From: Nevskiaceae bacterium
GTDB lineage: Bacteria > Pseudomonadota > Gammaproteobacteria > Nevskiales > Nevskiaceae
Direction of reading: 5' to 3'
NCBI GenBank assembly: GCA_036379455.1
Contig: DASVGQ010000054.1
Location: 277-64,276 of the forward strand
DNA: 64,000 bases
Of the stretch, positions 2,256-22,905 are shown piece by piece (the first letter of the stretch is position 1; each line of letters starts with the position of its first letter). The notes below the pieces were generated by a model. It did no database searches, had not been told where the DNA came from, and worked only from the letters and a program-made list of their open reading frames with translations. The translations under genes and the position numbers were made by a program.

Positions 2256-3044
2256 ATGGATGGGTTGAAAGCCAAGGTGGCGATCATCACGGGTGGTGCC
2301 ACCCTCATCGGCGCGGGAGTGGCGCGCGTGCTTCACGCCAGTGGCGCCAGCGTGGTCATTGCCGACATCGACGCGACCGGAGGCAAGCGCGTGGTCGATG
2401 AGCTGGGCGCTAACGCCGTATTCCTGTCGACGGATATCACGAAGGACGCCGAGATCCAGAACTGTGTCGACCGCACGGTCGCGAAATTCGGCGGCGTCGA
2501 CATTCTCGTCAATCTTGCGTGCAGCTATCTCGACGACGGCATCAACTCGACGCGCGCCGACTGGCACGCGAGCCTTGACGTCAACCTGATCGGCGCCGTG
2601 GTCATGAGCAAGGCGTGTCGGCCGCACATGGTGGCGCGTGGCGGCGGGGCGATCGTGAACTTCAGCAGCATCAGCGCGAAGGTTGCCCAGACCGGCCGCT
2701 GGCTGTACCCGGTCGGCAAGGCGGCGGTCACGCAGCTGACGCGCAACATGGCACTTGATCTTGCCGCCGACCACATCCGCGTCAACTCGGTCGCTCCGGG
2801 ATGGACCTGGTCACGCATCATGGATGAACTGACGCAGCACGACCGCGCCAAGACCGATCGCGTGGCGGCACCGTTCCACATCCTCGGCCGGGTGGGCGAC
2901 CCTGACGAGGTGGGCAACGCGGTGGCGTTTCTGTGCTCGCCGCAGGCTTCGTTCATCACCGGCGCCAACCTGCCGGTCGACGGAGGATACGGTGCGCTGG
3001 GGCCCGAGCAAGGAGCTCCTGCAATTCCGTTGTTGACTCAGTGA
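2256..3044 (+). CDS. Short-chain dehydrogenase/reductase (SDR)
   Basis: ATG at 2256 preceded by AGGGGGAG. TGGATLIG dinucleotide fold, NLACSY, YPVGK catalytic Y-x3-K, PVDGG tail. Paralogous to the SDR at 11740..12588. The 5' part of track ORF 1857..3044 does not look coding. Confidence 0.88.
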   Translation: MDGLKAKVAIITGGATLIGAGVARVLHASGASVVIADIDATGGKRVVDELGANAVFLSTDITKDAEIQNCVDRTVAKFGGVDILVNLACSYLDDGINSTRADWHASLDVNLIGAVVMSKACRPHMVARGGGAIVNFSSISAKVAQTGRWLYPVGKAAVTQLTRNMALDLAADHIRVNSVAPGWTWSRIMDELTQHDRAKTDRVAAPFHILGRVGDPDEVGNAVAFLCSPQASFITGANLPVDGGYGALGPEQGAPAIPLLTQ

Positions 3045-3056
3045 AGGGGGAGACAC

Positions 3057-4556
3057 ATGAAGATCGCGGTCATAGGCGCAGGCTTTGCGGGCCTTAGCGC
3101 CGTCAAGGTGCTGACGCAGTTCGGACACGACGTCACGGTCTTTGAGAAGGCGCCGGACGTGGGTGGCGTGTGGAGCGCGACCCGACGTTATCCGGGCCTG
3201 CGTACGCAGAACAACAAGGGAACGTACTGCTTCAGCGACTTCCCGATGCCCGCCAGCTATCCCGAGTGGCCTTCCAGCGAGCAGGTCCAGAAGTACCTCG
3301 CGGATTACGTCCAGCATTTCAACCTCGGCGACAGGATCCAGCTGAACAAGGAGGTCATGAAGGCGGAGCCCAACGGTGACAAGGGCTGGCGCCTGACGGT
3401 ACGGGATACCCAGAGCAACGGGACCATTGAGCACGATGCGGAGCGCCTGGTCGTTGCGAATGGCATCTTCTCCAAGCCCTTCATCCCGCCCTACAAGGGG
3501 CGCGATGAGTTCGAGGCTGCCGGCGGCCATATCGGTCCACCCTCGGAATTCCACGACCTGGAACAGGTACGCGGCAAGAACGTGATCGTTGTCGGCTACG
3601 GAAAGTCCGCGTGCGACGCTGCAGCAAAGATCGGCGAAGCCGCGGCGTCGACCACCGTGGTGGCGCGTGAGCTGATCTGGAAGATGCCGCGCAAGATCAT
3701 GAACGTCCTCAATTACAAGTATTTGATGCTTACTCGCATGGGCGAGGGATTGTTCCCGTACCAACGGCGCAGGGGATTCGAGAAGTTTCTGCACGATGGC
3801 CCAGGCCGCGCCATGCGCAACAGCATGATCAACTCGCTGCAGTCGGTGGTCACGAAGCAGTACAAGCTCAAGGAGCGCGGGCTGGTGCCTCGCGGCAGCT
3901 TTGACCGTATCGCACGCAGCACCGTGTCGCTGGCATCGGACCAGCTCTATGAGCACGTGGAGCAGGGAACGACCGAGATCATCCGTGACTGCGAAATCAC
4001 GCGTCTGGGAGTCGACAAAGGCAAACCGGTCGCGGTCCTCAGCAACGGGCGCACGATTCCGGCGGATGCAGTGATCTGCGGCACCGGTTGGCAACAGGAG
4101 ACGCCTTTCTTCTCCAAGGAGATCGAAGCAAAGATCACCGACGGTGAAGGGAACTTCATGCTCTGGCGGCAGATTCTCCCGCTCGAGGTGCCCAACGTGA
4201 TGTTCTGTGGCTACAACTCATCCTTCTACAGCCCGTTGAGTGCGGAAGTGGCGTCGCTGTGGATCGCAACCTATCTGATGGGCGGCGTGAAGCTGCCACC
4301 GTTGGCAGAACGCCGCACGCGTATCGAGGAACGCCTCCGCTGGATGAAGGAACGGACGGAAGGACACCATGCGCGTGGAACCAACATCATTCCCTTCTCG
4401 ATGCACAACATCGACGAGATGCTCGATGAGATCGGAGCGAACGTATCGGCCCTGACACGGTTCAAGCAATGGCTGATGCCGACGAACGCGAAGGACTACC
4501 AGTCCGTGACGAAGCGATTGCTCAAGCGCCAACACGCTCCATCTGCCCATGCTTGA
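3057..4556 (+). CDS. FAD/NAD(P)-dependent class B flavoprotein monooxygenase (FMO-like)
   Basis: ATG at 3057 with GGGGGAG RBS, 12 nt after the SDR. Two Rossmann motifs (VIGAGFAGLS near the N-terminus, VVGYGKSACD mid-protein), 499 aa, the layout of FMO/BVMO-type enzymes. Confidence 0.8.
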   Translation: MKIAVIGAGFAGLSAVKVLTQFGHDVTVFEKAPDVGGVWSATRRYPGLRTQNNKGTYCFSDFPMPASYPEWPSSEQVQKYLADYVQHFNLGDRIQLNKEVMKAEPNGDKGWRLTVRDTQSNGTIEHDAERLVVANGIFSKPFIPPYKGRDEFEAAGGHIGPPSEFHDLEQVRGKNVIVVGYGKSACDAAAKIGEAAASTTVVARELIWKMPRKIMNVLNYKYLMLTRMGEGLFPYQRRRGFEKFLHDGPGRAMRNSMINSLQSVVTKQYKLKERGLVPRGSFDRIARSTVSLASDQLYEHVEQGTTEIIRDCEITRLGVDKGKPVAVLSNGRTIPADAVICGTGWQQETPFFSKEIEAKITDGEGNFMLWRQILPLEVPNVMFCGYNSSFYSPLSAEVASLWIATYLMGGVKLPPLAERRTRIEERLRWMKERTEGHHARGTNIIPFSMHNIDEMLDEIGANVSALTRFKQWLMPTNAKDYQSVTKRLLKRQHAPSAHA

Positions 4557-5277
4557 TGACGCCTGCTTGCGGCAGGCCTGAGAACGCATCGGAATTCGCA
4601 CCCGGGCGGCGTCCGCGCGATGTTCGCGTGGCAGGCGAGAGCGGGTCAGGTCTAGCGCGTTGGGGGCCGCAGGCTGATGAGACTGGATACCGGAGAAACT
4701 TGGTGCGCTGCGGCACGGCGCGCGGGTCGGTGTAGCTGCGAGGCGCCGTCTCGGTACGGCGTTTGCCGCCTCGCGTGCGTAACTTGTCCGTCGCTCGACG
4801 GAAGCGCGCACAGCCACGGTCCTGTGTGCGGCTTGAATTTGGGAGTGGTCGTCCGGCACGCGTTTGTGGCGCGCCGTGGTGCCATGTCGTGGTGAATGCG
4901 TCCCAGCGGGCATGTTTAAAGCGGCCGCGGGAGGCCATCGCTGCCAGCCTTCGTTCTTGCGGAAAAAAGCATAGAACGAGGTGGCTCGAGCGGCAGTCGG
5001 ATGGGGAAAACCCTCGCGATCAGTAGTTTGGTGGCGGTCCAGCCGTCAAGTGGCGCTATGCCGTGCATTCCGCGCGTCCGAGAGCCGTCGCGGGGGCCTG
5101 TTTCGTTGTCATGCTGTCGCGGCGTGCGACGCAACAGCGACGCGCCGTGGCTGTTGGACGATCTACGCAGAGCCACGCCTCACGGGTGTCAGTGATGTCA
5201 TGGACAGCGTGGGTACAATCGCGTTACTAATAGGAGAGGTGTCTGTCGAATTGACGATAGTCTTCTGGAGCTGAGAG

Positions 5278-7629
5278 ATGGCCGAACGGTCTTTCAAGGG
5301 TGAAGTCAAGAAGCTGCGCTTGGGCAAAGGGGATGTGTTCCATGGTGAGGGAATCATGGCCATCACCAAGGCACTTCTTGAGTCTGGCGTGTCCTATGTC
5401 GGCGGTTATCAGGGTGCGCCGATCTCGCATCTGATGGATGTGTTCAGCGACGCATCGGACATCTTGGCGGAGTACAACGTCCGCTTCGAGAACAGCGCGA
5501 ACGAGGCGGCTGCCGCGGCGATGCTGTCGGCTTCGGTGAACTATCCGCTGCGCGGGGCGGTAACGTTCAAGACCACCGTCGGCACGAACGTGGCGGCGGA
5601 CGCCCTGTCGAATCTGTCCTCGGGCGGCGTGACGGGAGGCGCGCTCATCATTCTGGGCGAAGACTACGGTGAAGGCTCCTCCATCATGCAGGAGCGCAGC
5701 CACGCATTCGCCATGAAGTCGCAGATGTGGCTGCTGGATCCGCGGCCGAACCTGACGAGCATCGTGAAGGCGGTAAAGGACGGGTTTGAGCTGTCCGAGG
5801 CGACCAATACGCCGGTGATGATGATGATGCGCATCCGTTCGTGCCACCTGCGTGGCACCTTCGTGTGCGATGACAACCGAGCTTCGACCTTCACTCCGAA
5901 GGAAGCGCTGGAACACCCGGTCCGCGACCTCACGCGTATCGTGCTGCCGCCGGCGAGTTTCCAGCACGAAGTGGAGAAGATCGAGGGGCGCTGGCCGCGG
6001 GCCGTACGGTTCATCCAGGAACACGAGCTCAACGAGTTCATTTCCGAGGATGCGGCGAACGTGGGCATCGTGACGCAGGGCGGCAGCTACAACGCCGTGA
6101 ACCGCGCGCTGCACCGCGTCGGGCTGTCGGACATGTACGGCAACTCGAAGATCCCGATCTTCGTGATGAATTGCGTCTATCCGTTGGTGGACGCTGAATT
6201 CGAACGCTTCTGCAAGGGTAAGCGGGCGATCCTGATCGTCGAGGAAGGCCAGCCGAACTTCATCGAGCAGAACGTTGCGGACATCCTGCGGCAACGCGAA
6301 ATCGACATCCGTCTGCATGGCAAGGATGTGCTGCCGCTGGCGGGTGATTACAACGTCGCGACGGTGTTTGTAGGCGTCCGCGATTTTCTCGTTGAATACG
6401 GCTTCGTCGAGCCAGGCAAGTTTCCCGACCCGGTGGCGGACGTGCATCCGGTCTCCTTGTTCGAGCTGCAACGTCGCAAGCAGATTCCGAAGGCTCATGC
6501 GGACGAGGTTTCGGCGGAGGTTGCCGAACAGCGCGCCAAGGTGCACAAGGTCCAGGCAGCGGCCGCGGCGGCCAAGGCGGCTACGAGAGCAGCTGCTGTG
6601 GCAAAACAGCCGGTACCTTCAGTGCAGCTCGCCGAGGTGGAGAAGGAACCGACGCTCGACGACACGGTTCAGGGTCGTCCGCCTGGTCTGTGCACGGGGT
6701 GCCCGGAACGGCCGATTTTCACGTCGATCATGCTCGTGGAGGAGCAGCTCGGCGTTCATCACATCGCGTCGGACATCGGTTGCAACCTGTTCTCGATCAT
6801 GCCGCCCTTCAACTTGGGCAACACGACGATGGGCTACGGCCTGTCGGGGGCGAGCTCGGAAGCGTTCAATGTGGCGCCGGGCAGCCCGGCGGCGGACAAG
6901 CGTGCGATCGCGATCATGGGCGACGGTGGTTTCTGGCATAACGGTCTGACGACCGGTATCGCGAACGCGGTGTTCAATCGCAGCGATAACGTGACCATCA
7001 TCGTCGACAACAACTACGCGGCGGCGACGGGAGGACAGGACATCCCGTCAACGCGCACGAACAGGCGCGCCATCCGCGACGCAGGTCACGCAATCGAAGA
7101 CGCGGTCAAAGGCGTAGGCGTGAAGTGGGTGCGCACGATCACGCGGACCTACGATCTCGAGAAGATGACGAAGACCCTGCGGGAGGCGTTGACAACGCAT
7201 ACGGACGGGCCGAAGGTCATCATTGCGCAGAGCGAATGCATGCTGAACAAGCAGCGCCGCGTCAAGCCGTTGAAACTCAAGGCCATTGCCGACGGCAAGC
7301 GGGTCGTCCGCGAGCGTTTCGGCGTCGACTCCGATACCTGCACGGGCGATCACTCGTGCATCCGCCTGTCGGGCTGCCCGTCGCTCACGATCAAGGAGAA
7401 CCCCGACCCGCTGCGGGAGGACCCGGTTACCACGGTTCTCGATAGCTGCGTGGGCTGTGGACACTGTGGTGAGATGGCACATGCAGCGGTGCTGTGTCCG
7501 TCCTTCTACAAGGCTTCGATCGTGAACAACCCGACGCCGTGGGACAAGCTGAGCGCACGCATGCGGATGTGGATCATCGCGCCGCTGCAGGCGATGGCGG
7601 CGCGACGCCGCGCGCGGTTCGCGTTCTGA
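5278..7629 (+). CDS. Indolepyruvate:ferredoxin oxidoreductase family, alpha-like subunit (TPP and 4Fe-4S binding 2-oxoacid oxidoreductase)
   Basis: 783 aa. TPP motif AIMGDGGFWHNG...IIVDNNYAAATGGQ. Cys clusters CTGCPERP, CTGDHSCIRLSGCPS and CVGCGHCGEMAHAAVLCPS. Low-complexity Ala/Lys linker in the middle. Confidence 0.85.
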   Translation: MAERSFKGEVKKLRLGKGDVFHGEGIMAITKALLESGVSYVGGYQGAPISHLMDVFSDASDILAEYNVRFENSANEAAAAAMLSASVNYPLRGAVTFKTTVGTNVAADALSNLSSGGVTGGALIILGEDYGEGSSIMQERSHAFAMKSQMWLLDPRPNLTSIVKAVKDGFELSEATNTPVMMMMRIRSCHLRGTFVCDDNRASTFTPKEALEHPVRDLTRIVLPPASFQHEVEKIEGRWPRAVRFIQEHELNEFISEDAANVGIVTQGGSYNAVNRALHRVGLSDMYGNSKIPIFVMNCVYPLVDAEFERFCKGKRAILIVEEGQPNFIEQNVADILRQREIDIRLHGKDVLPLAGDYNVATVFVGVRDFLVEYGFVEPGKFPDPVADVHPVSLFELQRRKQIPKAHADEVSAEVAEQRAKVHKVQAAAAAAKAATRAAAVAKQPVPSVQLAEVEKEPTLDDTVQGRPPGLCTGCPERPIFTSIMLVEEQLGVHHIASDIGCNLFSIMPPFNLGNTTMGYGLSGASSEAFNVAPGSPAADKRAIAIMGDGGFWHNGLTTGIANAVFNRSDNVTIIVDNNYAAATGGQDIPSTRTNRRAIRDAGHAIEDAVKGVGVKWVRTITRTYDLEKMTKTLREALTTHTDGPKVIIAQSECMLNKQRRVKPLKLKAIADGKRVVRERFGVDSDTCTGDHSCIRLSGCPSLTIKENPDPLREDPVTTVLDSCVGCGHCGEMAHAAVLCPSFYKASIVNNPTPWDKLSARMRMWIIAPLQAMAARRRARFAF

Positions 7630-7664
7630 TTCTGCTGAGAACCACCTTCTGGAAGAGGTTCGTC

Positions 7665-9242
7665 ATGGTCGTTGACCCCATCAAGATTGCCGTTCTCGCC
7701 ATGGGTGGAGAGGGCGGTGGTGTGCTGGCTGACTGGATCGTGGATCTGGCCGAAGGAAACGGCTGGTTCGCGCAGACGACTTCGGTGCCGGGCGTCGCGC
7801 AGCGCACGGGTGCGACCATCTACTACCTCGAGCTGTTCCCGGGAGCGAACGACTCGAAGGCGAAACAGCCGGTGTTCGTTGAATCTCCCCTGCCGGGTGA
7901 TGTGGATATCGTCATCGCTTCGGAGCTCATGGAGGCGGGTCGTGCGCTCAAGCGCGGCTTTGTGAGCGCGGACCGTACGACGGTCATCTCTTCTACGCAC
8001 CGCGTGTACACGAAGCGCGAGAAGATGGAAATGAGCGACGGGCGCATCGACAGCGATGCGCTGTTGAAGCAGGTGGAGAAAGCGGCAAAACGCTACATCC
8101 GGTTCGACATGGCGAAGCTTGCTGGCGACGCCGGAGCGGTGGTCAGCGCGTGCATGTTCGGCGCGCTGTGTGGGGCCGGCGTACTGCCGTTCACACGCAA
8201 GCAGTTCGAGGACACGATCGTCAAGGGTGGGAAGGGCGTGAAGTCGAGCCTGAAGGCTTTCGACCTGTCTTTTTCCAAGGCGCAGGACGCGAAGGAGTCC
8301 GCGTCAGGTCCAGCCGGCAAACGCCACGTCGATGAAAGCGCGCCGCGGGATCTGAAGACGGACAGTGCGGCGGTGCAGGCGCTGCTGCAACGCGTCCGCG
8401 GATATCCGGAGAACCTGCAGTGGATCCTTACGGAGGGAGTCCGGAAGGTGATCGACTACCAGGATCCGGCCTACGGCAAGTTATACATGGATCGCATGGA
8501 TGCCTTGGCCGCGGCGCCGGGCGGAAAAGACGTGCAGCTGCTACATGAAACAGCGCGCTATCTGGCGCTGTGGATGGCATATGACGATACGTTCCGTGTA
8601 GCGGACCTGAAAACGCGAAGCAGCCGTTTTCAGCGCGTACGTGACGAGGTCCACGCGCACCCCGATCAAGTGTTGACCATCGGCGAGTACATGCATCCCC
8701 GCATCGAGGAAATCTGTGATTCGATGCCCGCGTGGCTTGGCCGCTGGATCCTCAAGCCGAATTTCGCGCATCGCTTCGTCCGGCTGTTCACGCTCAAGGG
8801 CCGCGTCATAAAGACCACCTCGCTGACCGGCTTCCTCATGCTGTACATGATGGCGCGCTTCGGCTATCGCTTCCGTCGGATATCGCTTCGCTACAAGATC
8901 GAGACGCGGCAGATCGATGCTTGGTTGGAACGGCTCCGCAAGCTGGCAGGCGTCGATCCGGCTCTGGCGTTGGAAGCGGCCAAGTGCCAGAGGCTGATCA
9001 AGGGCTACAGCAATACCCATGCGCGAGGCCTGATGAACTTCAACACCATCATGAAAGTCATCGACCAGAACATGAACCACTTGGCGCCGGCTCAGTTGGC
9101 TGAAATGCGCAACGCGGCGCTCGGTGATGAACGCGGCAAGAAGCTCTTTGAATGCCTGCAGCGCAACGGATTTTCGGTGGACGGGTTGTTCACCGATCCT
9201 GAGCACCACCGTCACAGCCTGTATCCGGCTCCCAGCGCATGA
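7665..9242 (+). CDS. Indolepyruvate:ferredoxin oxidoreductase family, beta-like subunit with long C-terminal extension
   Basis: ATG at 7665 (RBS GGAAGAGG) within ORF 7494..9242. N-terminal IAVLAMGGEGGGVLADW is the PFOR-gamma/IorB GxGGxG motif. The roughly 330-aa C-terminal extension resembles the tail of the large fused IOR-family proteins of aerobic proteobacteria. Confidence 0.82.
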   Translation: MVVDPIKIAVLAMGGEGGGVLADWIVDLAEGNGWFAQTTSVPGVAQRTGATIYYLELFPGANDSKAKQPVFVESPLPGDVDIVIASELMEAGRALKRGFVSADRTTVISSTHRVYTKREKMEMSDGRIDSDALLKQVEKAAKRYIRFDMAKLAGDAGAVVSACMFGALCGAGVLPFTRKQFEDTIVKGGKGVKSSLKAFDLSFSKAQDAKESASGPAGKRHVDESAPRDLKTDSAAVQALLQRVRGYPENLQWILTEGVRKVIDYQDPAYGKLYMDRMDALAAAPGGKDVQLLHETARYLALWMAYDDTFRVADLKTRSSRFQRVRDEVHAHPDQVLTIGEYMHPRIEEICDSMPAWLGRWILKPNFAHRFVRLFTLKGRVIKTTSLTGFLMLYMMARFGYRFRRISLRYKIETRQIDAWLERLRKLAGVDPALALEAAKCQRLIKGYSNTHARGLMNFNTIMKVIDQNMNHLAPAQLAEMRNAALGDERGKKLFECLQRNGFSVDGLFTDPEHHRHSLYPAPSA

Positions 9243-10261: not shown

Positions 10262-10609
10262 AACGGCGCTGTCGTCGTATCGACGCTAACAAGATCCGCA
10301 CACGGGTACTTGTGCCCGCGCAACATACGTGCGGCTCGGCAGCAAGTTCCGCCGGTGCGCGGGCTCTGCACCGCCCGAGGTCTCAGCCCGCCCCAGCCCT
10401 GCTACGAATGGCGGTAGCCTCGCTTGAACGAGGTCACCGCATGACCCGTCCCGTCCAGGGCCGGTAGCTCGGTGCCGTATCGGCGGTGCGGTGCGGCCGC
10501 ACACGTCAGCGCACTGCGTATTCCGGTGAGCGCCGGGCGACTCGTGAACCGCGAACAACCGGACGTCTGACGACCGTTACGGCATACAGAGACACTCGGC
10601 ACTTTCGGC

Positions 10610-10655
10610 GTGACCGAGCTTCCCGCGCGACGCGATGTGCGCGGGTGACCGAGCT
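10610..10655. repeat. Hairpin flanked by an 11-nt direct repeat
   Basis: GTGACCGAGCT (10610-10620) and GTGACCGAGCT (10645-10655) bracket the inverted repeat CCCGCGC...GCGCGGG, in the 473-bp non-coding spacer between the reductase and cyclase genes. Confidence 0.4.
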
Positions 10656-10734
10656 GTCGCCAGCCCGGTCGGCGCGAATCTTCGCTTGTCGCTGCTCGTG
10701 GCGATAACGGGCCTCCGGGCTTCTGAGCCTCCGT

Positions 10735-13915: not shown

Positions 13916-13942
13916 GGTGATTTCTCCTCGGATCGCGGTGGC

Positions 13943-15253: not shown

Positions 15254-15273
15254 GTGTGTCGATCCTCCGTTGC

Positions 15274-16485: not shown

Positions 16486-16511
16486 GTTCCCCTCCCAAGT
16501 ACCGGTGGACT

Positions 16512-16575
16512 CCTGATCATGGTGGCGAGCTGCGTGCAACGCTATCCAGTTCTGGCAGTTTTGAGCCTGATCATG
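16512..16575. promoter_or_regulatory. 10-bp direct repeat CCTGATCATG x2 in the divergent AraC / SBP-dioxygenase promoter region (candidate operator)
   Basis: Identical copies at 16512-16521 and 16566-16575, 54 bp apart (about five helical turns). Each contains the palindrome TGATCA. They lie between the start codons at 16485 (minus strand) and 16619 (plus strand). Confidence 0.35.
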
Positions 16576-16618
16576 CAACATCTCCGCGATCTGGCTGTCT
16601 CGGGGGAGAGGTGATGCC

Positions 16619-17599
16619 ATGCAGCCGTGGTTCCGGAGGACGCTCGACCCGCTCTACGCGGCGGTCCCGCTGTTCACGTCCAGCGATCTCGGCGAAGTGC
16701 GCTGGCGCACGACGGCGGCCCTGAAGGAGCACGAGCTCAACTGGCGCTCGGGTCGGGTGGACTCCTCGTTGTGCACGCTCGCCGTCGGCGATGCCTCCTT
16801 GATGCTGCTGCGCTACGGCGCGGCCGTCACCGTGACCCCCGGCGCGCTGCAGGACTTCTTGTTGTTCCAGGTGCCGGTATGGGGCGCTGCGTCGATCACG
16901 GTGGGCGGTACGCGGCTGCGCACGGACGCGTGCACCGCGGCCCTCATCTCGCCGACCCTGTCGCTGCAGCTGCAGTGGGAGGAGGGGTGCGAGCAGCTGC
17001 TGGTGAAGTTCCCTCGCGAACGCGTCGAGCGCCTGTGCGGCTGGCTGCTCGGCATGCCGATCACGACGCCGATCGAATTCCAGCCGTGCTTTGCGATGGA
17101 CAGCGCTGCCGGATGCTGCTGGCAGCATCAGCTCGGCGCGCTGCTCGCATGGCGCCGGCGCCCGCCCGCCCGATCGTTGGAGCGCTGGGCGGATGCGCAG
17201 CAGGAGGCCCTTATTCAGTACCTGCTGCTGAGCCAGCCGCACAACTACTCGGCCCTGCTGGAGCAAGGGCCCAGCGGTGCGAGCCGCAACCTGCGGCGTG
17301 CCGCGGAATACATCGCGGCACATCTGCAGGAGCCGCTTGTGCTTGCACGCATTGCGCGCGCCGGCGGCGTGAGCGTGCGCAGCCTGTGTGCCGGCTTTCG
17401 CGAGCACTTCGGGCAGTCGCCGATGGCCTACGTGCGCAGCCAGCGCATGGACCACGCGCGCTCCGAGTTGATGCGGGCCCCGCCCGGAACGCATGTGACG
17501 GACGTGGCGCTGCGCTGGGGTTTCACGCACCTCGGGCGGTTCTGCGCCCGCTATCGGCGCCGCTACGGCGAAACGCCGGCCGAGACGCTGAGGAAGTAG
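16619..17599 (+). CDS. AraC family transcriptional regulator
   Basis: 326 aa. C-terminal double HTH (LARIARAGGVSVRSLCAGFREHFGQSPMAYVRSQRMDHARSEL...DVALRWGFTHLGRFCARYRRRYGETP). Divergent from the SBP-dioxygenase operon. Confidence 0.88.
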   Translation: MQPWFRRTLDPLYAAVPLFTSSDLGEVRWRTTAALKEHELNWRSGRVDSSLCTLAVGDASLMLLRYGAAVTVTPGALQDFLLFQVPVWGAASITVGGTRLRTDACTAALISPTLSLQLQWEEGCEQLLVKFPRERVERLCGWLLGMPITTPIEFQPCFAMDSAAGCCWQHQLGALLAWRRRPPARSLERWADAQQEALIQYLLLSQPHNYSALLEQGPSGASRNLRRAAEYIAAHLQEPLVLARIARAGGVSVRSLCAGFREHFGQSPMAYVRSQRMDHARSELMRAPPGTHVTDVALRWGFTHLGRFCARYRRRYGETPAETLRK

Positions 17600-17620
17600 C
17601 GGGGTCCGCCGCGCCGACGG

Positions 17621-18790
17621 TCAGCGCGCGTCGTCGCGCAGCAGCTCGCGCGCGATGATCAGCAGCTGGACCTCACTGGCGCCTTCGTAGATGCGCAGCG
17701 CGCGGATGTCGCGGTAGAGCCGCTCGACCGGCTGCTCGCTGACCACACCCAGACCCCCGTGCAGCTGCACCGCCGCATCGATGACGCGCTGCGCGTTCTC
17801 GGTGGCGGTGAGCTTGGCCATGGCGGCCTCGCGGGTCACGCGCTGGCCCTGGTCTCGCTGCCACGCGGCGCGGTAGGTCAGCAGTGCGGCGCTGTCGATG
17901 GCGGTCGCCATTTCGGCGAGCTTCGCCTGCGTGATCTGGAAATCCGCGAGCACGCCTTTGAACATCTTGCGGCTGATGGCGCGTGCCAGTCCCTCGTCCA
18001 ACGCTCGACGTGCGAAGCCCAGCGCCGCGGCGGCGACGGATGTGCGAAAGACGTCAAGGGTGCGCATGGCCACCTTGAAGCCTTCTGCCGGGTTTCCCAG
18101 CCGCTGGGTGGCGGGGATGCGACAGTTCGTGAAACGCAGGCGCGCCAGCGGATGGGGGGCGATGACTTCGATGCGTTCGGCAATCTCGAAGCCCGGCGTT
18201 CCGGCATCGACGATGAACGCGGTGATGCCGCGCGACCCCGGCGCCTCGCCGGTGCGCGCGAAAACCACGTAGAAGTCCGCGATGCCACCGTTCGAGATCC
18301 ACATCTTCTCGCCGTCGAGCACGTAGTGATCCCCGTCGTGGCGCGCGGTGCAGGACAGCGCGGCGACGTCCGAGCCGGCGTCGGGTTCAGACAGCGCGAA
18401 CGCGGCGATCGCGGCTCCGCTGGCCACGCGCGGCAGATAGCGCTGCTTCTGCTGCGCTGTCCCATGCAGAGAAATGGCGCCCGAGCCCAGCCCCTGCATC
18501 GCGAAGGCGAAGTCCGCCAGCCCCGAATGCCGCGCCAGCGTTTCGCGGATCAGGCAGATCGCGCGCGTGTCGATGGTGTCCGTTGCCCCGCCATAGGAGG
18601 TGCCGGCGATCGCGTGGCGCAGCCAGCCGTCCGTGCCCAGAGCCTTCACCAGCGCGCGGCAGGTATCGTCGACGTCGCGACCGTGGTTCGCGGCGATGTG
18701 TTCGGTCGCCCACGCGTCGAGCGCGGTCGCCAGCTCCCGATGGCGTTCTTCGAAGAACGGCCACTGCAGGTAGCTCTTGTCGGACGTCAT
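17621..18790 (-). CDS. Acyl-CoA dehydrogenase
   Basis: ATG at 18790 ([13 protein letters not shown]), overlapping the upstream stop by 1 nt (TGATG). ACAD pattern ...[11 protein letters not shown]...WISNG...YEGASEVQ. 389 aa. Confidence 0.88.
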
Positions 18791-19644
18791 CAGTTGCCCT
18801 CGAATTTCGGCTTCTGCTTGGCGACGAAGGCGCGGTAGGCACGCGCGAAATCTTCCGTCAGCATGCACAGCGCCTGCGCCTGGGCTTCAGACTCGATCGC
18901 CTGGTCGATGGTCATCGACCACTCCTGGTGGAGCATGGTCTTGGTGATGCCGTTGGCGAAGCTCGGGCCCTGCGTGAGGCGGGCGGCGAGGGCCTGCGCG
19001 TCGGCGAGCAGGGACTCGGGTTCGCACAGGCGGTTGAAGAAGCCCCATCGCTCGCCTTCTTCGCCGCCCAGACTGCGCCCGGTATACAGCAGCTCGCTGG
19101 CGCGCCCCTGCCCGATCAGACGCGGGAGCATGGCGCAGGCGCCCATGTCGCAGCCCGCCAGCCCGACGCGGTTGAAGAGAAAGGCCGTCTTGCTGCGCGC
19201 GGTGCCGACGCGCATGTCCGACGCCATCGCAAGGATGGCGCCGGCGCCAGCGCATACGCCGTCCACCGCCGCGACGATCGGCTGCGGGCAGGCGCGCATC
19301 ATCTTCACGACTTCGCCGGTCATGCGCGTGAAAAGCAGGAGTTCTGGAGCCTTCATGCGCACCAGCGGGCCGATGATCTCGTGTACGTCACCGCCCGAGC
19401 AGAAGTTCTCGCCGGCGCCCGTCACCACCACGGCCTTGACGTCCTCCGCCCACTTGAGCTCATGGAAGAGATCGCGCAGCTCCGCGTAGCTCTCGAAGGT
19501 CAGTGGGTTCTTTCGCTCCGGCCGGTTGAGCGTGATCGTCGCCACCTGCTCGCGCACGTCCCAGCGGAAGTGTCGCGCCGCGTAGCTTGCAAGCTGCCGG
19601 CGGTTGCCGGCCACCAAGCCGGGATCAACGCGTCCGTCGTTCAT
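18790..19644 (-). CDS. Enoyl-CoA hydratase/isomerase (crotonase) family protein
   Basis: 284 aa. [16 protein letters not shown]...[15 protein letters not shown] is the crotonase fold signature. Confidence 0.88.
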
Positions 19645-19762
19645 CGAGTTGCTCCTTCATCGTTTTACCTCGCGACCAAGCGGTGCCGCTGCCGGAGAAC
19701 CGGTGTCAGGTCGTTCGGACGCTCCGCGCTGCGGCTGGATATGCCTTTGCCGCCCGCTGCGG

Positions 19763-20539
19763 CTAGGGCATCACCTCGCCGCCGCTGACGGACACTGACT
19801 GCCCGGTGACAGCCCCCGTGTTCTCGCCGCACAGCCATGCCACCGTGTCAGCCACTTCCACCGGTTCCACGAGCCGGTGCTGCGGGTTCACCTTGATGAA
19901 CTCCTCGAGCGCCGACTCCTCGCTCCGGCCGGTTTTCGCCACCACACGTCTGATGCTTTCCTTGACCAGGTCGGTGTTGGCATAGCCGGGGCAGACGGCG
20001 TTGACCGTCACGCCCTTCTTTGCCATTTCCAGTGCCAGCGCCCGCGTCAGCCCGACCACGCCGTGCTTGGCCGCCACATACGCCGTGACGTAGGCATAGC
20101 CGACCTTGCCGGCGGTGCTGGCGATATTGACGATGCGTCCCCAGCCGGCTTCGACCATCGCCGGCAGCACCGCGTGCGTGCACAGCATGGTGCCGGTGAG
20201 GTTGACGTCGAGCATGCGTTGCCACAGCGCGAGATCCATCTTCAGGAACGGCGCGCTGGAAGCCATGCCGGCGTTGTTGACGAGGATGTCCACCCGCCCG
20301 AAGCGCTGGTTGGCGTCGGCGACCGCCGCCTGCACCTGCTGCTCGCTGGTGATGTCCGCCGCCACCGCGTGCAGATGCTCGGGGTCCTTCGTCGCCAGCT
20401 GCTGGGCGCCTTCCAGGCGAACGTCCAGGATCGTCACGCGGTGTCCGTCGGCCACGAGGCGCCGCGCGATCGCCGCGCCGATCCCGCGGCTGCCGCCGGT
20501 AACCAGCGCGTGGCGCCCGGGCTTGACCCCAGAGCTCAC
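19763..20539 (-). CDS. SDR-type 3-hydroxyacyl-CoA dehydrogenase-like oxidoreductase
   Basis: GTG at 20539 overlapping the upstream TGA (GTGA). ALVTGGSRGIG, NNAG, YVAAKHG (Y-x3-K). 258 aa. The longer track ORF 19763..20860 overlaps the upstream gene and is rejected. Confidence 0.85.
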   Translation of the reverse strand: MSSGVKPGRHALVTGGSRGIGAAIARRLVADGHRVTILDVRLEGAQQLATKDPEHLHAVAADITSEQQVQAAVADANQRFGRVDILVNNAGMASSAPFLKMDLALWQRMLDVNLTGTMLCTHAVLPAMVEAGWGRIVNIASTAGKVGYAYVTAYVAAKHGVVGLTRALALEMAKKGVTVNAVCPGYANTDLVKESIRRVVAKTGRSEESALEEFIKVNPQHRLVEPVEVADTVAWLCGENTGAVTGQSVSVSGGEVMP

Positions 20540-22905
20540 AGGTTGACCCCCGCACGCGCACGGATGCGCGCCGTCTCCAGCGCGGCGGCCTGTGCCGCCT
20601 GGCTGCGCTCGAAGTTCGCTTCCATCTGCCGCTTGCCTTGGTAGTACTGCTTGGGCCACTTGATGTTGCGGTAACCGAGCTTGGCCGCTTCCGTGAGCGT
20701 CCACGCCGGGTTGGCGAGGTGCGGGCGCGCGATGGCGCACAGATCGGCGCGGCCGGCACCCAGGATGCTGTTGACGTGGTCGGCCTCGAAGATTGCGCCG
20801 ACGGCGATGGTCGCGATGTGCGCTTCCTGGCGGACTTCGTCCGCGAACGGCGTCTGCCACATGCGGCCGTAGGTCGGCTTCTCGTCCTTGCTGACCTGTC
20901 CCGCCGAGCAGTCGATCATGTCCGCGCCAGCGGCCTTGAAGGCCTTGGCGATCACCACCGCGTCGTCCGGCGTGATGCCGCCGTCAACCCAGTCCGTCGC
21001 GGAGATACGCACTGACATCGGCTTCTCCTGCGGCCAGATGGCGCGCATGGCAGTGAAGATCTCCAGCGGGTAGCGCAGGCGATTGGCCAGCGAGCCGCCG
21101 TATTCGTCGGTGCGATGGTTCGTCAGCGGCGAGATGAACTCGGACAGCAGGTAGCCGTGCGCGCAGTGCAGCTCGAGCCAGTCCGCGCCCACTTCGATGA
21201 CTGCGCGCGTGGACGCCAGGAACTGTTCCTTGACCATGTCCATGTCGGCGCGCGTCATCTCGCGCGAGATCTGGCTCACGCCTTTCAGGTATTGCTGCGG
21301 CGATGCCGAGATGATCGGCCAGTTGCCTTCCTCGAGTGGCAGGTCGGTGCCGTCCCACGCCAGTCGCGTCGAAGCCTTGGCACCGGCATGACCGAGTTGC
21401 ATGCCGAAGCGTGCGTCCGTGTTGGCATGGATCCAGTCCGAAATGCGCTTGAAGGCCGCGGTGTGCTCCGGCTTGTAGAGCCCCGGACATCCGGGCGTGA
21501 TGCGGCCTTCCGGACTTACGCAGGTCATCTCGGACACCACCATTGCGGCACCGCCGAGCGCGCGGGCGCCGAGATGCACGAGATGGAAGTCGCCGACCAG
21601 TCCATCGACCGCCGAGTACTGCGCCATCGGTGAGCAGATGATGCGGTTCTTGAGCGTGACGTCGCGCACCTTGTACGGCAGGAACATGGGAGGCGGGGGC
21701 GTTTCGTCCTTGCCGACGTGGAAGCCGTTCTTCTCGGCGAACCAGCGTTCGTAGCCCTCGAGCCACGCCTTGTCGCGCAGCCGCAGGTTCTCGTGGCTGA
21801 TGCGCTGGCTGCGGGTCAGCAGCGAGTACATCAGCTGCTCGGGTTCGAACTGGTCGCAGTAGCGCTTGCCGCACACCTCGAACCATTCCATCGCGTTGCG
21901 CGCCGCGTTCTGCAGTCGCAGCGTCTCGATGCGTCGTGATTCCTGGTAGGCGGCGAGCACTTCGGGAATGTTCTCCTTGCGATCGCCGAGGCGCTGGAAC
22001 TGCTTGGTGAGCTCGATGCCGTCCTCGATGGCCAGCTTGGTTCCGGCACCGATGGCGAAGTGGGCGGTGTGCACCGCATCGCCCATCAGTACCACGTGCG
22101 CGCCATGCTTGTTCTTGAGCCACCACTGGTCACAGACGACGCGCGAGAAATTCAGCCACGCCGAACCGCGCAGGTGCCGCGCGTTGGTTTCCAGCTTGGC
22201 GCCCTGGAGGTTGTCGGCAAACAGCTTCTCGCAGTAGGCGATGGACTGCTGCTGGTCCATCTTGTCGATGCCTTCTGCCTTCCACGTCTCCTCGGTGGTT
22301 TCGACGATGAAGGTGGAGCTGGTGTCGTCAAACTTGTAGATGTGGGCCTGGACCCAGCCATGCGGCGTCTTGCGGAAGTCGAAGGTGAAGGCGTCGTAGA
22401 GGCGGTGCGTGCCGAGCCAGATGAAGCGGTTCGGACGCACGCTGATGTCCGGCTTGAAGATCTCCGCGTATTCCGTGCGGATCTTGGAATTGATGCCGTC
22501 GCTGGCGATGATCAGGTCGGCATCGGGGTAGTCTTCGTCCGAATCCACCTCGGTCTCGAACACGAGCTTGACGTCGAGCTGCTCGCAGCGGCGCTGCAGG
22601 ATGTTGAGCAGGTTCTTGCGGTAGATGCCGACGAAGCCGTGGCCACCGGAGCGGATGTGGCGTCCCTTGAAGAGCAGCTCGATGTCATCCCAGTGATTGA
22701 AGGCCGCCTGGATCTCGTCCGCGCTCTCGCGGTCCCAGGCCCGCATGTTGTCCATCGTCAGATCGGAGAACACCACGCCCCAACCGAAGGTGTCGTAGGG
22801 CCGGTTGCGCTCTACGACGGTGATGTCGTGCTTGGCGTTGAGCTTCTTCATGAGCAGCGCCAAGTACAGACCGGCGGGTCCCCCCCCGATGCATACGATC
22901 TTCAT
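20536..22905 (-). CDS. Fused FAD aromatic monooxygenase / old-yellow-enzyme-type reductase (2-aminobenzoyl-CoA monooxygenase/reductase or salicylyl-CoA 5-hydroxylase architecture)
   Basis: 789 aa (about 87 kDa). N-terminal MKIVCIGGGPAGLYLALLM FAD fold and ...LMGDAVHTAHFAIGAGTKLAIEDG hydroxylase motif. The C-terminal half (NRIICSPMAQYSAVDG...GMQLGHAGAKAS...LELHCAHGYLLSEFISP) is an OYE/FMN TIM barrel. This two-domain fusion and size are characteristic of ACMR-type enzymes. Confidence 0.85.
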   Translation of the reverse strand: MKIVCIGGGPAGLYLALLMKKLNAKHDITVVERNRPYDTFGWGVVFSDLTMDNMRAWDRESADEIQAAFNHWDDIELLFKGRHIRSGGHGFVGIYRKNLLNILQRRCEQLDVKLVFETEVDSDEDYPDADLIIASDGINSKIRTEYAEIFKPDISVRPNRFIWLGTHRLYDAFTFDFRKTPHGWVQAHIYKFDDTSSTFIVETTEETWKAEGIDKMDQQQSIAYCEKLFADNLQGAKLETNARHLRGSAWLNFSRVVCDQWWLKNKHGAHVVLMGDAVHTAHFAIGAGTKLAIEDGIELTKQFQRLGDRKENIPEVLAAYQESRRIETLRLQNAARNAMEWFEVCGKRYCDQFEPEQLMYSLLTRSQRISHENLRLRDKAWLEGYERWFAEKNGFHVGKDETPPPPMFLPYKVRDVTLKNRIICSPMAQYSAVDGLVGDFHLVHLGARALGGAAMVVSEMTCVSPEGRITPGCPGLYKPEHTAAFKRISDWIHANTDARFGMQLGHAGAKASTRLAWDGTDLPLEEGNWPIISASPQQYLKGVSQISREMTRADMDMVKEQFLASTRAVIEVGADWLELHCAHGYLLSEFISPLTNHRTDEYGGSLANRLRYPLEIFTAMRAIWPQEKPMSVRISATDWVDGGITPDDAVVIAKAFKAAGADMIDCSAGQVSKDEKPTYGRMWQTPFADEVRQEAHIATIAVGAIFEADHVNSILGAGRADLCAIARPHLANPAWTLTEAAKLGYRNIKWPKQYYQGKRQMEANFERSQAAQAAALETARIRARAGVNL

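Follow-up and report, generated by a model that had tools for sequence, protein, structure and literature searches.

Does a gene cluster that combines ring oxygenases, a cyclase-family hydrolase, a 2-oxoacid oxidoreductase-like enzyme, and an operon of the 2-aminobenzoyl-CoA type encode a single degradation route, or do its modules only lie side by side? The question is raised by positions 2256–22905 of a 64-kb stretch of DNA (hereafter, the window), where the cluster sits in a Nevskiaceae MAG with housekeeping genes on both sides. Codon-position GC analysis and ORF listing gave 16 genes, and the gene number, the coordinates, and every domain named in a sequence-only reading of this DNA were confirmed by the ORF listing and by Pfam and NCBIfam profiles. 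Its count of four transcription blocks did not hold: five co-oriented blocks were found, because the AraC gene stands alone as a block. We consider it fairly probable that the locus is an aerobic funnel that would lead an indole-type compound (indole or an indole acid) through an isatin hub into the 2-aminobenzoyl-CoA pathway. The hydrolase, the Rieske oxygenase, synteny, and the absence of a ligase, all computational lines of evidence, support this reading, which had already been put forward from the letters alone.

The grouping of the genes is more than chance, since their order recurs in a sister contig and the genes for isatin hydrolase (IH), the IOR-like enzyme (IORab), and the ACMR-family enzyme co-localize widely. 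The sister contig, an independent assembly, has the identical 16-gene order at approximately 87% nucleotide identity, and its enzymes are 89–98% identical at the protein level; the whole arrangement is kept under purifying selection in this second organism.

The hydrolase (positions 10735–11517, minus strand) is an IadI-like Mn hydrolase of the cyclase family, and its HxGTHxDxPxH metal motif is intact, reading H-T-G-T-H-F-D-A-P-I-H. It shares 69% identity (E-value approximately 3.7e−123) with PDB 5NMP, the isatin hydrolase RsIHA of R. solanacearum, with further PDB matches to 5NNA/5NNB and 4J0N. RsIHA has been crystallized and assayed, and isatin hydrolases are characterized both biochemically and structurally (PMC6117287). 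The identity to 5NMP and the intact motif agree with the lactam hydrolysis that the sequence-only reading had suggested, and the predicted conversion of isatin to isatinate by this protein is strongly supported by this homology. Its identity as a kynurenine formamidase was rejected (TIGR03035, 26 bits; cut-off 223).

The Rieske oxygenase alpha subunit (13943–15253, minus strand; Pfam Rieske and Ring_hydroxyl_A), whose 436-aa start is backed by the sister contig, is a distant relative of IadD (PDB 9o71/7yls; E-value 1e−103, 40% identity), the Variovorax oxygenase that oxidizes IAA. IadD is the nearest characterized relative; a phthalate-type identity, which the sequence-only reading had set out as a check, was rejected. 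The gene for the beta subunit (13379–13915, minus strand; PF00866) is next to that for the alpha subunit in every related locus. We propose that this oxygenase attacks the 2,3-position of the indole pyrrole ring. Its putative electron donor is an IadC-like PDR/VanB-type reductase (9239–10261, plus strand; Pfam FAD_binding_6, NAD_binding_1, and Fer2), which has an FNR-like portion and a C-terminal 2Fe-2S domain; the first 4 nt of its gene are shared with the end of IORb. This reductase is 58–63% identical to the iadC-position reductase of iad-type metagenome loci but only 35–41% identical to the reductases of pCAR1-type modules.

Further candidates for the early steps are two short-chain dehydrogenases, a flavin monooxygenase, and an isochorismatase-fold protein. 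SDR1 (2256–3044, plus strand; Pfam adh_short_C2; NF006121, 416 bits) is IifB-like (54% identity to the iifB-position SDR encoded by the iif operon of A. baumannii) and is a candidate indole-2,3-dihydrodiol or 3-hydroxyindolin-2-one dehydrogenase. SDR2 (11740–12615, minus strand; NF006121, 379 bits) belongs to a conserved Rieske-ISOC-SDR module, and in 54 of the 56 related genome loci the ISOC gene is followed by an SDR2 ortholog (52–73% identity); the two proteins are 48% identical, consistent with their earlier description as paralogs. Twelve base pairs downstream of SDR1 begins the gene for an FMO-like monooxygenase (3057–4556, plus strand; PF00743, E-value 8e−34), the best PDB match of which is an uncharacterized flavin monooxygenase (8z17, 1e−35). 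This gene is kept in the sister contig, and no homolog was present in 177 related loci; the FMO is a possible single-component indole oxygenase without synteny backing. The isochorismatase-fold protein (ISOC; 12762–13382, minus strand; PF00857, E-value 7.5e−36) is invariably coupled to this Rieske lineage. It belongs to a Cys-less clade: in its ATHSVVE motif the canonical Cys is replaced by Val, as it is in every one of the 55 orthologs, which also do not conserve the canonical Lys. It is therefore probably not the second hydrolase that had been suggested.

The IOR-like enzyme consists of an IadA-like alpha subunit with a TPP/[4Fe-4S] architecture (IORa; 5278–7629, plus strand; PF02775) and an IadB-like beta-family subunit (IORb; 7665–9242, plus strand; POR and DUF6537; NF006179, 670 bits, cut-off 348). 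IORa has Pseudomonas, Cupriavidus, and Ralstonia homologs at 65–70% identity; it scored below the NCBIfam IOR-alpha equivalog cut-off (TIGR03336, 290 bits against 651), so that the sequence alone is silent on the 2-oxoacid used. From family chemistry and gene neighborhood, we propose that IORab is a CoA-acylating isatinate:acceptor oxidoreductase. Two points count against this role: 2-oxoacid:ferredoxin oxidoreductases are frequently O2-labile, and no dedicated ferredoxin gene accompanies IORab. In published iad data, IadA and IadB are induced by IAA, which fits the proposed role, and strong accumulation of C8H7NO3, the formula of isatinate, is confined to a locus-deleted strain that expresses iadC-K2 and so has no iadAB. 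However, the same nine genes restore anthranilate formation in V. paradoxus; isatinate is thus convertible without IadAB, which is non-essential there, and this counts against the proposed step.

The last operon is headed by a fused FAD monooxygenase/OYE reductase of the ACMR/salicylyl-CoA 5-hydroxylase family (20536–22905, minus strand; NF006101, 1337 bits, cut-off 1078), with a VioD-like N-terminal domain and an OYE-like C-terminal domain in a PDB search; it is 57% identical to its homolog in thioesterase/cupin operons, and we propose that it is a 2-aminobenzoyl-CoA monooxygenase/reductase. Conserved in position after ACMR is an SDR-type hydroxyacyl-CoA dehydrogenase (19763–20530, minus strand; adh_short, E-value 4e−65) with BadH-like and 3-hydroxybutyrate-dehydrogenase-like matches. 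There follow an enoyl-CoA hydratase-family protein (ECH; 18790–19644, minus strand; NF006107, 501 bits, cut-off 330), with orthologs at 66–72% identity, and an acyl-CoA dehydrogenase with N, M, and C domains (ACAD; 17621–18790, minus strand), whose orthologs (63–73% identity) come after ECH in IOR/ACMR operons.

These parts can be arranged in a five-step route. The Rieske oxygenase, fed by the PDR-type reductase, would oxygenate the pyrrole C2=C3 bond, as the FMO may also do. The Cys-less ISOC and the two SDRs would then convert the product, by way of 3-hydroxyindolin-2-one, to isatin, and the isatin hydrolase would open the lactam to give isatinate (2-aminophenylglyoxylate). With CoA, IORab would carry out an oxidative decarboxylation of isatinate directly to 2-aminobenzoyl-CoA, so that neither free anthranilate nor an ATP-dependent ligase would be required. 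Judged by their families, the ACMR-type enzyme would hydroxylate and reduce the ring, which would then undergo β-oxidation-like processing by the SDR, hydratase, and acyl-CoA dehydrogenase. Control of the gene set would fall to the AraC-family regulator (16619–17599, plus strand; Pfam AraC_binding_2 and HTH_18), whose gene is divergent from the operon of the solute-binding protein and Rieske genes. It best matches AndR in NCBIfam (164 bits, under the cut-off of 350), and a homolog (31–62% identity) is found with the Rieske module in 37 of 56 loci. The sequence-only reading had stated that the cluster has no CoA ligase; this held for the whole 64-kb window, both by a PS00455 motif scan and by tblastn against an AMP-binding protein. 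Homologs of a thiolase, IifA/DLH, IifC, a thioesterase, a gentisate-type cupin, and MarR were also absent from the window; without IifA, 3-hydroxyindolin-2-one would have no alternative exit.

Related loci were compared in a metagenomic sample of 61 IORa loci, each flanked by 6 kb or more of sequence; IORb followed IORa in 58 of them. IH was found in 35 loci, ACMR-operon genes in 22, and both in 15; at least one pathway partner occurred in 50, whereas the 11 loci with none of the partner genes count against the proposed link. In 20 loci, IH and IORa shared a strand, with IH immediately upstream, and in 9 the distance from IORb to a downstream ACMR-family gene was at most 900 bp; compact operons had the order IH-IORa-IORb-ACMR-SDR-ECH-ACAD-thioesterase (L130, L132, L135, and L136). 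In Azospirillum thermophilum, the order is MarR/IORab-reductase-Rieske alpha/beta-ligase-SDR-ACMR-SDR-ECH-ACAD. In Ralstonia (which also has iifBCD-like genes), Pseudomonas, Cupriavidus, and Burkholderia, IH stands beside an IORab-thioesterase-ACMR-like-cupin operon; Providencia has the same operon in a locus that ends before any IH. The IH-IOR-ACMR association spans the entire IORa tree, and related clusters elsewhere retain both the cyclase and the ACMR components, as the earlier proposal had asked of synteny. This neighborhood strongly supports isatinate as the predicted substrate, and 2-aminobenzoyl-CoA as the predicted product, of the IOR-like enzyme.

It is unlikely that the modules are loosely or accidentally juxtaposed, with the Rieske/ISOC/SDR genes serving another aromatic acid, IOR serving amino-acid-derived aromatic 2-oxoacids, a detoxifying isatin hydrolase, and an ACMR operon supplied by an anthranilate-CoA ligase encoded at a distance. 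In favor of this view, the lower GC3 of the left half (approximately 0.75–0.86 at 2256–15292, versus 0.83–0.88 in the ACMR operon and AraC) suggests separate acquisition, IH and IOR are missing from most RHO-ISOC-SDR modules elsewhere, and some IORa homologs occur in unrelated contexts (aniline dioxygenase plasmids, and a paralog beside an alpha-hydroxy-acid oxidase). A ligase motif was also present in 3 of the 30 IOR+ACMR loci, but it was missing in the other 27. Moreover, IH, IORab, and ACMR genes recur jointly in many unrelated genomes and metagenomes across phyla, some as single operons, the full arrangement is conserved in the second organism, and the window has neither an IifA-type enzyme to form anthranilate nor a ligase to activate it.

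Less likely still is a plain iad-type IAA degradation locus, in which the Rieske oxygenase attacks IAA to yield free anthranilate, IOR has another role (e.g., indole-3-pyruvate to indoleacetyl-CoA), and ACMR is fed by a distal ligase. The gene set of IOR alpha/beta, reductase, Rieske alpha/beta, cyclase, SDR, and solute-binding protein is that of the published iadA-K locus, annotation pipelines call the IOR-like enzyme an indolepyruvate oxidoreductase, and the IORab-reductase block is 54–64% identical to iad-type loci (63–64% for IORa at the IadA position and 54–55% for IORb). The IadK-like solute-binding protein (Peripla_BP_6, E-value 2e−74; 15274–16485, minus strand), encoded by the sixteenth gene, which had previously been left unnamed, is 53% identical to that of one iad-type locus (L109). 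It is an orphan, with no permease or ATPase genes nearby; its best PDB match (4evq, 1e−42) is annotated merely as a putative ABC-transporter substrate-binding component, and its gene in the sister contig has a 359-bp deletion and only 83% identity. Its resemblance to binding proteins of iad and aromatic-catabolic loci hints that the substrate is charged (e.g., an indole carboxylate) and is not plain indole, which counts against indole as the starting compound. However, removal of the acetate side chain in iad requires an IadF-type AMP ligase, the IadG thiolase, and MarR, all missing from the window, and the Rieske alpha subunit, 40% identical to IadD, is 63–72% identical to the iif-like lineage of RHO-ISOC-SDR modules (56 genomes). 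In the compact operons, no enzyme but IH precedes IORab, and the next gene encodes an ACMR-family enzyme, an order that requires an aroyl-CoA product and not indoleacetyl-CoA.

It is very improbable that the fused enzyme is an SdgC-type salicylyl-CoA 5-hydroxylase in a pathway for 2-hydroxyphenylglyoxylate- or salicylate-type compounds: the NCBIfam equivalog that it passes bears that name, but the family spans both activities, the adjacent hydrolase is closely homologous to isatin hydrolase, whose product has a 2-amino group, and the downstream SDR, hydratase, and ACAD fit a dearomatizing ACMR route, not one through the thioesterase and gentisate dioxygenase, of which neither the thioesterase nor the cupin was found in the window.

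The cluster had been described as not known as one genetic unit; the association of IOR, Rieske, and cyclase genes is in fact published as iad, whereas neither a link of iad-type genes to ACMR nor a function for IadA/B was found in the searchable literature. The proposed IORab step suggests a job for IadA and IadB of auxin-degradation loci, which have no assigned function. By sequence comparison, the locus is a mosaic of three known systems. Its IORa-IORb-reductase order is that of iadA-iadB-iadC, but the ligase motif, which the scan of the IOR+ACMR loci also found in 12 of 13 iad-type loci, is missing here. Its Rieske genes make up an iif-like indole module in Rieske form, with an IifB-like SDR1; elsewhere, RHOab-ISOC-SDR modules pair with an IifA homolog (30 of 56), unlike the window, and others pair with an amine-oxidase-like flavoprotein, sometimes together with isatin hydrolase. 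The operon of ACMR, SDR, hydratase, and acyl-CoA dehydrogenase is abm-type. In evolutionary terms, an isatin hydrolase has been joined with these three components: the iadABC-like block, the Rieske-type iif module, and the abm-type ACMR operon.

Sixteen genes were resolved at 2256-22905 by ORF listing and codon-position GC analysis, and Pfam and NCBIfam scans confirmed in the window each of the domain classes that the sequence-only reading had named; the sixteenth gene, encoding a Peripla_BP_6 solute-binding protein (SBP; 15274-16485, minus strand), had gone unmentioned there. The plus strand carries SDR1 (2256-3044), an FMO-like monooxygenase (3057-4556), a TPP-dependent IOR-alpha-like protein (IORa; 5278-7629), an IOR-beta-family protein (IORb; 7665-9242), an FNR-type reductase with a C-terminal 2Fe-2S domain (9239-10261), and an AraC regulator. 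On the minus strand are a cyclase-family protein (10735-11517), a block of SDR2, an isochorismatase-fold protein (ISOC), Rieske beta, and Rieske alpha (11740-15253, with ISOC itself at 12762-13382), and an operon of a fused FAD-monooxygenase/OYE reductase (ACMR), an SDR, an enoyl-CoA hydratase (ECH), and an acyl-CoA dehydrogenase (ACAD) (17621-22905). SDR1 and SDR2 share 48% identity. The IORa protein is identical to HEX7381098.1, located on a 64.4-kb contig of a Nevskiaceae (Gammaproteobacteria) MAG. Promoter and terminator scans returned no more sites than were found in shuffled sequence and were thus uninformative, so the operon structure is read solely from gene spacing. The gap between the FMO and IORa genes (4557-5277) comprises 721 bp of non-coding DNA with a terminator-like hairpin (9-bp stem) at 4805-4830; its sole ORF, on the minus strand, had no Pfam match, and the gap had no Rfam match.

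The cluster is flanked on the left by housekeeping genes (two cytochromes c and a DUF4124 protein), and on the right by genes for RdgC, a PHP protein, and an MFS transporter, then the gmk/spoT/recG region, and beyond it cox genes, a sigma factor, and transketolase. GC3 was 0.75-0.86 for the SDR1, FMO, IOR, reductase, cyclase, SDR2, ISOC, and Rieske genes (2256 to approximately 15300) and 0.83-0.93 for the AraC gene, the ACMR operon (16619-22905), and the housekeeping genes, a contrast that fits a stepwise assembly of the cluster; the ACMR operon probably came first and the upper-pathway genes were gained afterwards. The earlier description of the cluster as an island is supported by its function and its lower GC3, but not by its boundaries, because the flanks are housekeeping genes, and neither the tRNA and Rfam scans nor the flanks revealed a tRNA gene, an Rfam match, or a mobile-element gene.

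A sister contig from an independent assembly (Logan SRR32932768) has an identical gene order at approximately 87% nucleotide identity, and its enzymes are 89-98% identical to those in the window, indicating that the enzyme set is under purifying selection as a unit. The exception is the SBP, which is the least conserved protein (83% identity) and whose gene carries a 359-bp deletion in the sister contig (corresponding to window 16096-16454), suggesting that it is dispensable or decaying. The SBP is also an orphan, with permease and ATPase partner genes absent nearby, and in a PDB search it best resembled 4evq, deposited merely as a putative ABC-transporter component. The FMO gene is kept in the sister contig, its close relatives are all uncharacterised, and no homolog was found in any of the 177 related loci. 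An MpaB/Lcp-family (rubber-oxygenase-type) gene at 23072-24088 on the plus strand, divergent from the ACMR gene across a 166-bp spacer, likewise had no homolog in the 177 loci. Synteny supports neither oxygenase as a conserved member of the pathway, and both were rejected as such.

The cyclase-family protein is 69% identical (E 3.7e-123) to the crystallised and assayed isatin hydrolase RsIHA of Ralstonia solanacearum (5NMP), and it also matches the Labrenzia isatin hydrolases LaIHA/B (5NNA, 4J0N). Its Mn-binding HxGTHxDxPxH site is intact, reading HTGTHFDAPIH, and the kynurenine formamidase model scored only 26 bits against a cut-off of 223. No sequence-level difference from RsIHA or LaIHA/B was detected, and the protein is predicted to be an isatin hydrolase; the comparison with characterised enzymes that the sequence-only reading had called for thus came out in its favour.

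The IOR-like pair did not reach either curated equivalog model, scoring 290 against a cut-off of 651 for the alpha subunit (TIGR03336) and 27 against 206 for the beta subunit (TIGR03334), and the only model passed by IORb was the broad "subunit beta family" model NF006179. The pair therefore falls short of the models that define the indolepyruvate:ferredoxin oxidoreductases sensu stricto, and the gene context argues for an arylglyoxylate (isatinate) rather than indolepyruvate as the likely substrate. IORa has an Ala/Lys-rich low-complexity linker (window 6500-6700, about residues 415-470), through which it reaches 783 aa, compared with approximately 720-765 aa in most homologs; that of V. paradoxus P0074 is also 783 aa long. 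IORa homologs at 65-70% identity occur commonly, and in consistent gene contexts, among aerobic members of Pseudomonas, Cupriavidus, Ralstonia, Burkholderia, Variovorax, Castellaniella, and Providencia. In Ralstonia pseudosolanacearum, genes for an SDR, an IifC-like oxygenase, a flavin reductase, isatin hydrolase, an amine-oxidase-like protein, a MetA-type porin, and AraC lie to the left of an operon encoding IORa-IORb-thioesterase-ACMR-family-cupin-FAA hydrolase-nitrilase family-racemase. This right-hand operon also occurs in P. trivialis, C. necator, Burkholderia SFA1, Providencia, and V. paradoxus, and in the first three of these the cyclase is found near it. Sulfitobacter indolifex has the order cyclase-MarR-IORa-IORb, and Azospirillum thermophilum has an iad-like set joined to ACMR-SDR-ECH-ACAD as a single string of genes.

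Scanning metagenomes with IORa yielded 80 loci, which were mapped by tblastn, and the 61 with at least 6 kb of flank were counted. An isatin hydrolase homolog was present in 35 of the 61, ACMR-operon genes in 22, both in 15, and an IadD-like Rieske gene in 15, such that 50 of the 61 loci contained at least one of the three partners. Isatin hydrolase was the immediate same-strand upstream neighbour of IORa in 20 loci; a compact operon, isatin hydrolase-IORa-IORb-ACMR-SDR-ECH-ACAD-thioesterase, occurred in four loci (L130, L132, L135, L136), and in four others ACAD-ECH-SDR-ACMR was divergent from isatin hydrolase-IORab. The association with these partners was spread across the entire IORa tree, with only a 52%-identical paralog outside it. 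This IOR alpha/beta paralog, on a Variovorax boronicumulans plasmid (L092, 19998-30574), has the same orientation as the neighbouring genes for an SBP, an FMN alpha-hydroxy-acid oxidase, an ABC transporter, and an enolase-superfamily protein, and the locus may represent a route from a mandelate-like aryl-hydroxyacid via an arylglyoxylate to an aroyl-CoA; as evidence for arylglyoxylate use it was given little weight, its NCBIfam names being generic. Another context is provided by plasmids of linuron-degrading consortia (Hydrogenophaga pBPS33-2, and also the Variovorax WDL1/PBS-H4 plasmids), where IS1071 copies enclose a 67%-identical IORa and the adjacent genes of the aniline-dioxygenase type (glutamine synthetase-like, amidotransferase, Rieske alpha/beta, and reductase), with no IORb among the genes listed.

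The fused monooxygenase/reductase of the window scored 1337 bits with NF006101 (cut-off 1078), an NCBIfam model that covers both 2-aminobenzoyl-CoA and salicylyl-CoA activities, and in a PDB search it split into VioD-like and OYE-like domains. The enoyl-CoA hydratase was above the cut-off of NF006107, and the order ACMR-SDR-ECH-ACAD recurs in Azospirillum and in metagenome operons. An AMP-binding signature was absent from 27 of the 30 loci with both IOR and ACMR genes, using a scan that detects it in 12 of 13 iad-type loci. In general, 2-oxoacid:acceptor oxidoreductases convert R-CO-COOH and CoA into R-CO-SCoA. Because ACMR needs an aroyl-CoA, and the only upstream enzyme of the compact operons yields an arylglyoxylate, the conversion of isatinate to 2-aminobenzoyl-CoA by the IOR-like enzyme would be the most economical reading. 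Isatin hydrolase would thus form isatinate, the IOR-like enzyme would convert it to 2-aminobenzoyl-CoA, and ACMR would act next, a core mechanism that we regard as somewhat probable. The pathway logic of the sequence-only reading, which had run from the indole ring through isatin and isatinate to 2-aminobenzoyl-CoA, finds computational support both in the homology of its proteins to characterised enzymes and in extensive, independent evidence from gene neighbourhoods. The electrons of the IOR-like enzyme might pass to the co-translated PDR-type reductase, which would feed the initial Rieske oxygenase, although the role of this translationally coupled reductase as electron acceptor is speculative.

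A second, widespread operon type (type B; L081, L083, L087, L093, L094, L096, L097) has the order IORa-IORb-4HBT thioesterase-ACMR/SdgC-family enzyme-cupin-FAA hydrolase-nitrilase-family protein-Asp/Glu racemase (maleate-isomerase-like), often with isatin hydrolase upstream and, in Ralstonia, with iifBCD-like genes as well. Its cupin was below the cut-offs of both the gentisate and the 5-aminosalicylate 1,2-dioxygenase models. From its gene content, the operon reads as a putative route from isatin via 2-aminobenzoyl-CoA to 5-hydroxyanthranilate, followed by ring cleavage to maleamate/maleate, and it may supply the genes hitherto lacking for the old "indole-isatin-anthranilate-gentisate" route. 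More generally, the two-subunit IOR-like enzymes of aerobic Proteobacteria, IadA/IadB among them, could be isatinate (2-aminophenylglyoxylate):acceptor oxidoreductases that form 2-aminobenzoyl-CoA directly, with isatin rather than anthranilate as the hub, a proposal for and against which we see the chances as evenly balanced. Indole and indole-3-acetate (IAA) would then enter, without an ATP-dependent ligase, either the dearomatising ACMR route or the 5-hydroxyanthranilate ring-cleavage route of the second operon type. The searchable literature contains no link between isatin or isatinate and an IOR-type enzyme, 2-aminobenzoyl-CoA formation, or 5-hydroxyanthranilate; earlier proposals may exist elsewhere.

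For the Rieske alpha subunit, the nearest solved relatives are the Variovorax IadD structures 9o71 and 7yls/8h2t (E ~1e-103), to which it is only 40% identical; it groups instead, at 63-72% identity, with a different, ISOC-linked lineage. A genome scan with this subunit recovered 56 loci in that identity range, all with the fixed order Rieske alpha-beta-isochorismatase-like-SDR. A DLH/SnoaL-fusion (IifA-like) protein accompanied the module in 30 of the 56 loci, and an amine-oxidase-like flavoprotein in 11, four of which also had isatin hydrolase. The fusion protein is found, for example, beside antA on pCAR1, near andAc in Burkholderia, and beside ACMR-operon genes in Achromobacter. Since it is 64% identical to the first gene product of the iifABCDE operon of A. 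baumannii, and the SDR at the iifB position of that operon is 54% identical to SDR1 of the window, the Rieske module is probably a Rieske-type counterpart of the iif indole-oxidation system. The carbazole plasmid pCAR1 (L090, record 13117-18647) carries reductase-Rieske alpha/beta-ISOC-SDR-IifA-like genes beside anthranilate dioxygenase genes, and the same set occurs in many Pseudomonas and Burkholderia genomes (L091, L033-L045). This set seems to be a Rieske version of the iif cluster for indole-to-anthranilate conversion; no published description of it was found in the literature. Neither IifC/IifD homologs (Smoa-type oxygenase and flavin reductase) nor a homolog of IifA (a DLH and SnoaL-like fusion, a cofactor-independent oxygenase that forms anthranilate) were found within the 64-kb window. 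Thus, anthranilate could not be formed in that way, and isatin hydrolase is the only visible exit.

ISOC is invariably linked to this Rieske lineage. Val stands in place of the canonical Cys (motif ATHSVVE) both in the window protein and throughout its 55 orthologs (loci L001-L056, L090, and L091), and the canonical Lys of the Asp-Lys-Cys triad varies. Annotation pipelines nevertheless call this Cys-less protein a "cysteine hydrolase". With the catalytic Cys missing, a role as a lactam or amide cysteine hydrolase was rejected; ISOC is not a cysteine amidase, and it is probably not the second hydrolase of the sequence-only reading. At a guess, ISOC handles an epoxide or a diol.

The IOR-reductase block belongs to a gene set known from IAA degradation. 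The iad operon has the order iadR(MarR)-iadA(iorA)-iadB(iorB)-iadC(reductase)-iadD-iadE(Rieske)-iadF(AMP ligase)-iadG(thiolase)-iadH(SDR)-iadI(cyclase)-iadJ(SDR)-iadK(SBP), and its genes were reportedly named by Nascimento et al. in 2021. The published pathway runs from IAA through isatin and isatinate to free anthranilate as the end product; the iadDE Rieske oxygenase is both required for oxidising IAA and sufficient to do so. IadA/B, whose expression IAA induces, are described as "exclusive markers" of iad-like loci, and in the literature up to 2026 they are known by annotation only. IORa, IORb, and the reductase of the window are 63-64%, 54-55%, and 58-63% identical, respectively, to proteins of iad-type metagenome loci, and counterparts of the iadI cyclase-family amidase and the SDR (iadJ/H) are present. 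Across the whole 64-kb window, however, there was neither a PS00455 motif nor a tblastn match to the ligase IadF, and no tblastn match to IadG, the thiolase for side-chain removal; the statement that a CoA ligase is lacking thus holds for its entire length. The window also lacks a MarR gene, which iad loci carry upstream of iadA, and the only regulator of the cluster is of the AraC type. With ligase, thiolase, and MarR absent, membership in the canonical iad group was rejected. The claim that the cluster is not known as one genetic unit stands only in part: the IORab-reductase block is known from iad, whereas neither the link to ACMR nor an assigned function for IadA/B was found in the searchable literature. 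In V. paradoxus with the whole locus deleted, expression of iadC-K2, without iadAB, restored anthranilate, so IadAB are not essential for anthranilate formation there. In the same strain C8H7NO3, whose formula is that of isatinate, builds up "strongly", as does C7H7NO, and this fits the loss of an isatinate-consuming enzyme.

As the starting substrate, IAA is argued against by the absent side-chain-removal genes, and relatives of the iif kind point to indole. The IadK-like SBP, although apparently decaying in the sister strain, gives a hint of a charged indole derivative. We name indole as the substrate only tentatively.

The bacterial metabolism of isatin and isatinate has been a gap in work on indole and auxin catabolism; a review of 2018 raised the questions of whether isatin is a genuine intermediate and of which genes take over from there. 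The locus and its relatives offer a testable assignment, in which isatin hydrolase is followed by an isatinate oxidoreductase of the IOR type that forms 2-aminobenzoyl-CoA. Their main value is that a large, mis-annotated enzyme family, and IadA/IadB with it, could be given a specific function that can be tested. If true, the assignment would close the aerobic indole/IAA pathways, explain the ligase-less state of many ACMR operons, add an aerobic, ATP-saving means of aroyl-CoA formation, improve the annotation of thousands of genes called "indolepyruvate ferredoxin oxidoreductase", and be relevant to the engineering of auxin-degrading rhizosphere strains.

Among known systems, PadEFGHI, the phenylglyoxylate:acceptor oxidoreductase of Azoarcus evansii, resembles the IOR-like enzyme in its proposed type of reaction. 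This enzyme of the 2-oxoacid:ferredoxin-oxidoreductase family converts an arylglyoxylate and CoA to an aroyl-CoA and CO2; it has five subunits and serves anaerobic metabolism, whereas the IOR-like enzyme of the window has two subunits and a DUF6537 domain and occurs in aerobes. The Sdg salicylate pathway of Streptomyces sp. WA46 (CoA ligase, salicylyl-CoA 5-hydroxylase, thioesterase, and gentisate dioxygenase) shares the hydroxylase/reductase family (NF006101), but the window has a dearomatising, beta-oxidation-type continuation in place of the thioesterase/gentisate branch; it is the type-B operons (IORab-thioesterase-hydroxylase-cupin) that mirror the Sdg logic. The abm clusters of Azoarcus/Aromatoleum evansii, compared here by gene composition, encode a fused 2-aminobenzoyl-CoA monooxygenase/reductase followed by an SDR, an enoyl-CoA hydratase, and an acyl-CoA dehydrogenase. 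The window shares a fused enzyme of this family and the beta-oxidation-like genes; it differs in that no AMP-binding gene for a 2-aminobenzoate-CoA ligase is present in the 64 kb, and the thioester is proposed to arise from oxidative decarboxylation of isatinate. With the iif/ind clusters of Acinetobacter and Cupriavidus (iifABCDE-R), the window shares an AraC-type regulator, the IifB-like SDR1, and probably the chemistry from indole via the 2,3-dihydrodiol to 3-hydroxyindolin-2-one; these clusters use the two-component flavin oxygenase IifCD, in place of which the window has a Rieske oxygenase and/or the FMO. With the iad loci of Variovorax paradoxus, Achromobacter, and Bradyrhizobium, it has in common IORa, IORb, and the PDR-type reductase in iadABC order, an IadDE-related Rieske alpha/beta pair, an IadI-type cyclase, an SDR (IadJ/H), a Peripla_BP_6 SBP (IadK), and the predicted route through isatin and isatinate, and it has in addition the Cys-less isochorismatase-like gene, the FMO, the IifB-like SDR, the AraC regulator, and a directly linked ACMR operon. 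The locus is thus best described as one that joins modules of known kinds: iad-like, iif-like, and abm-type.
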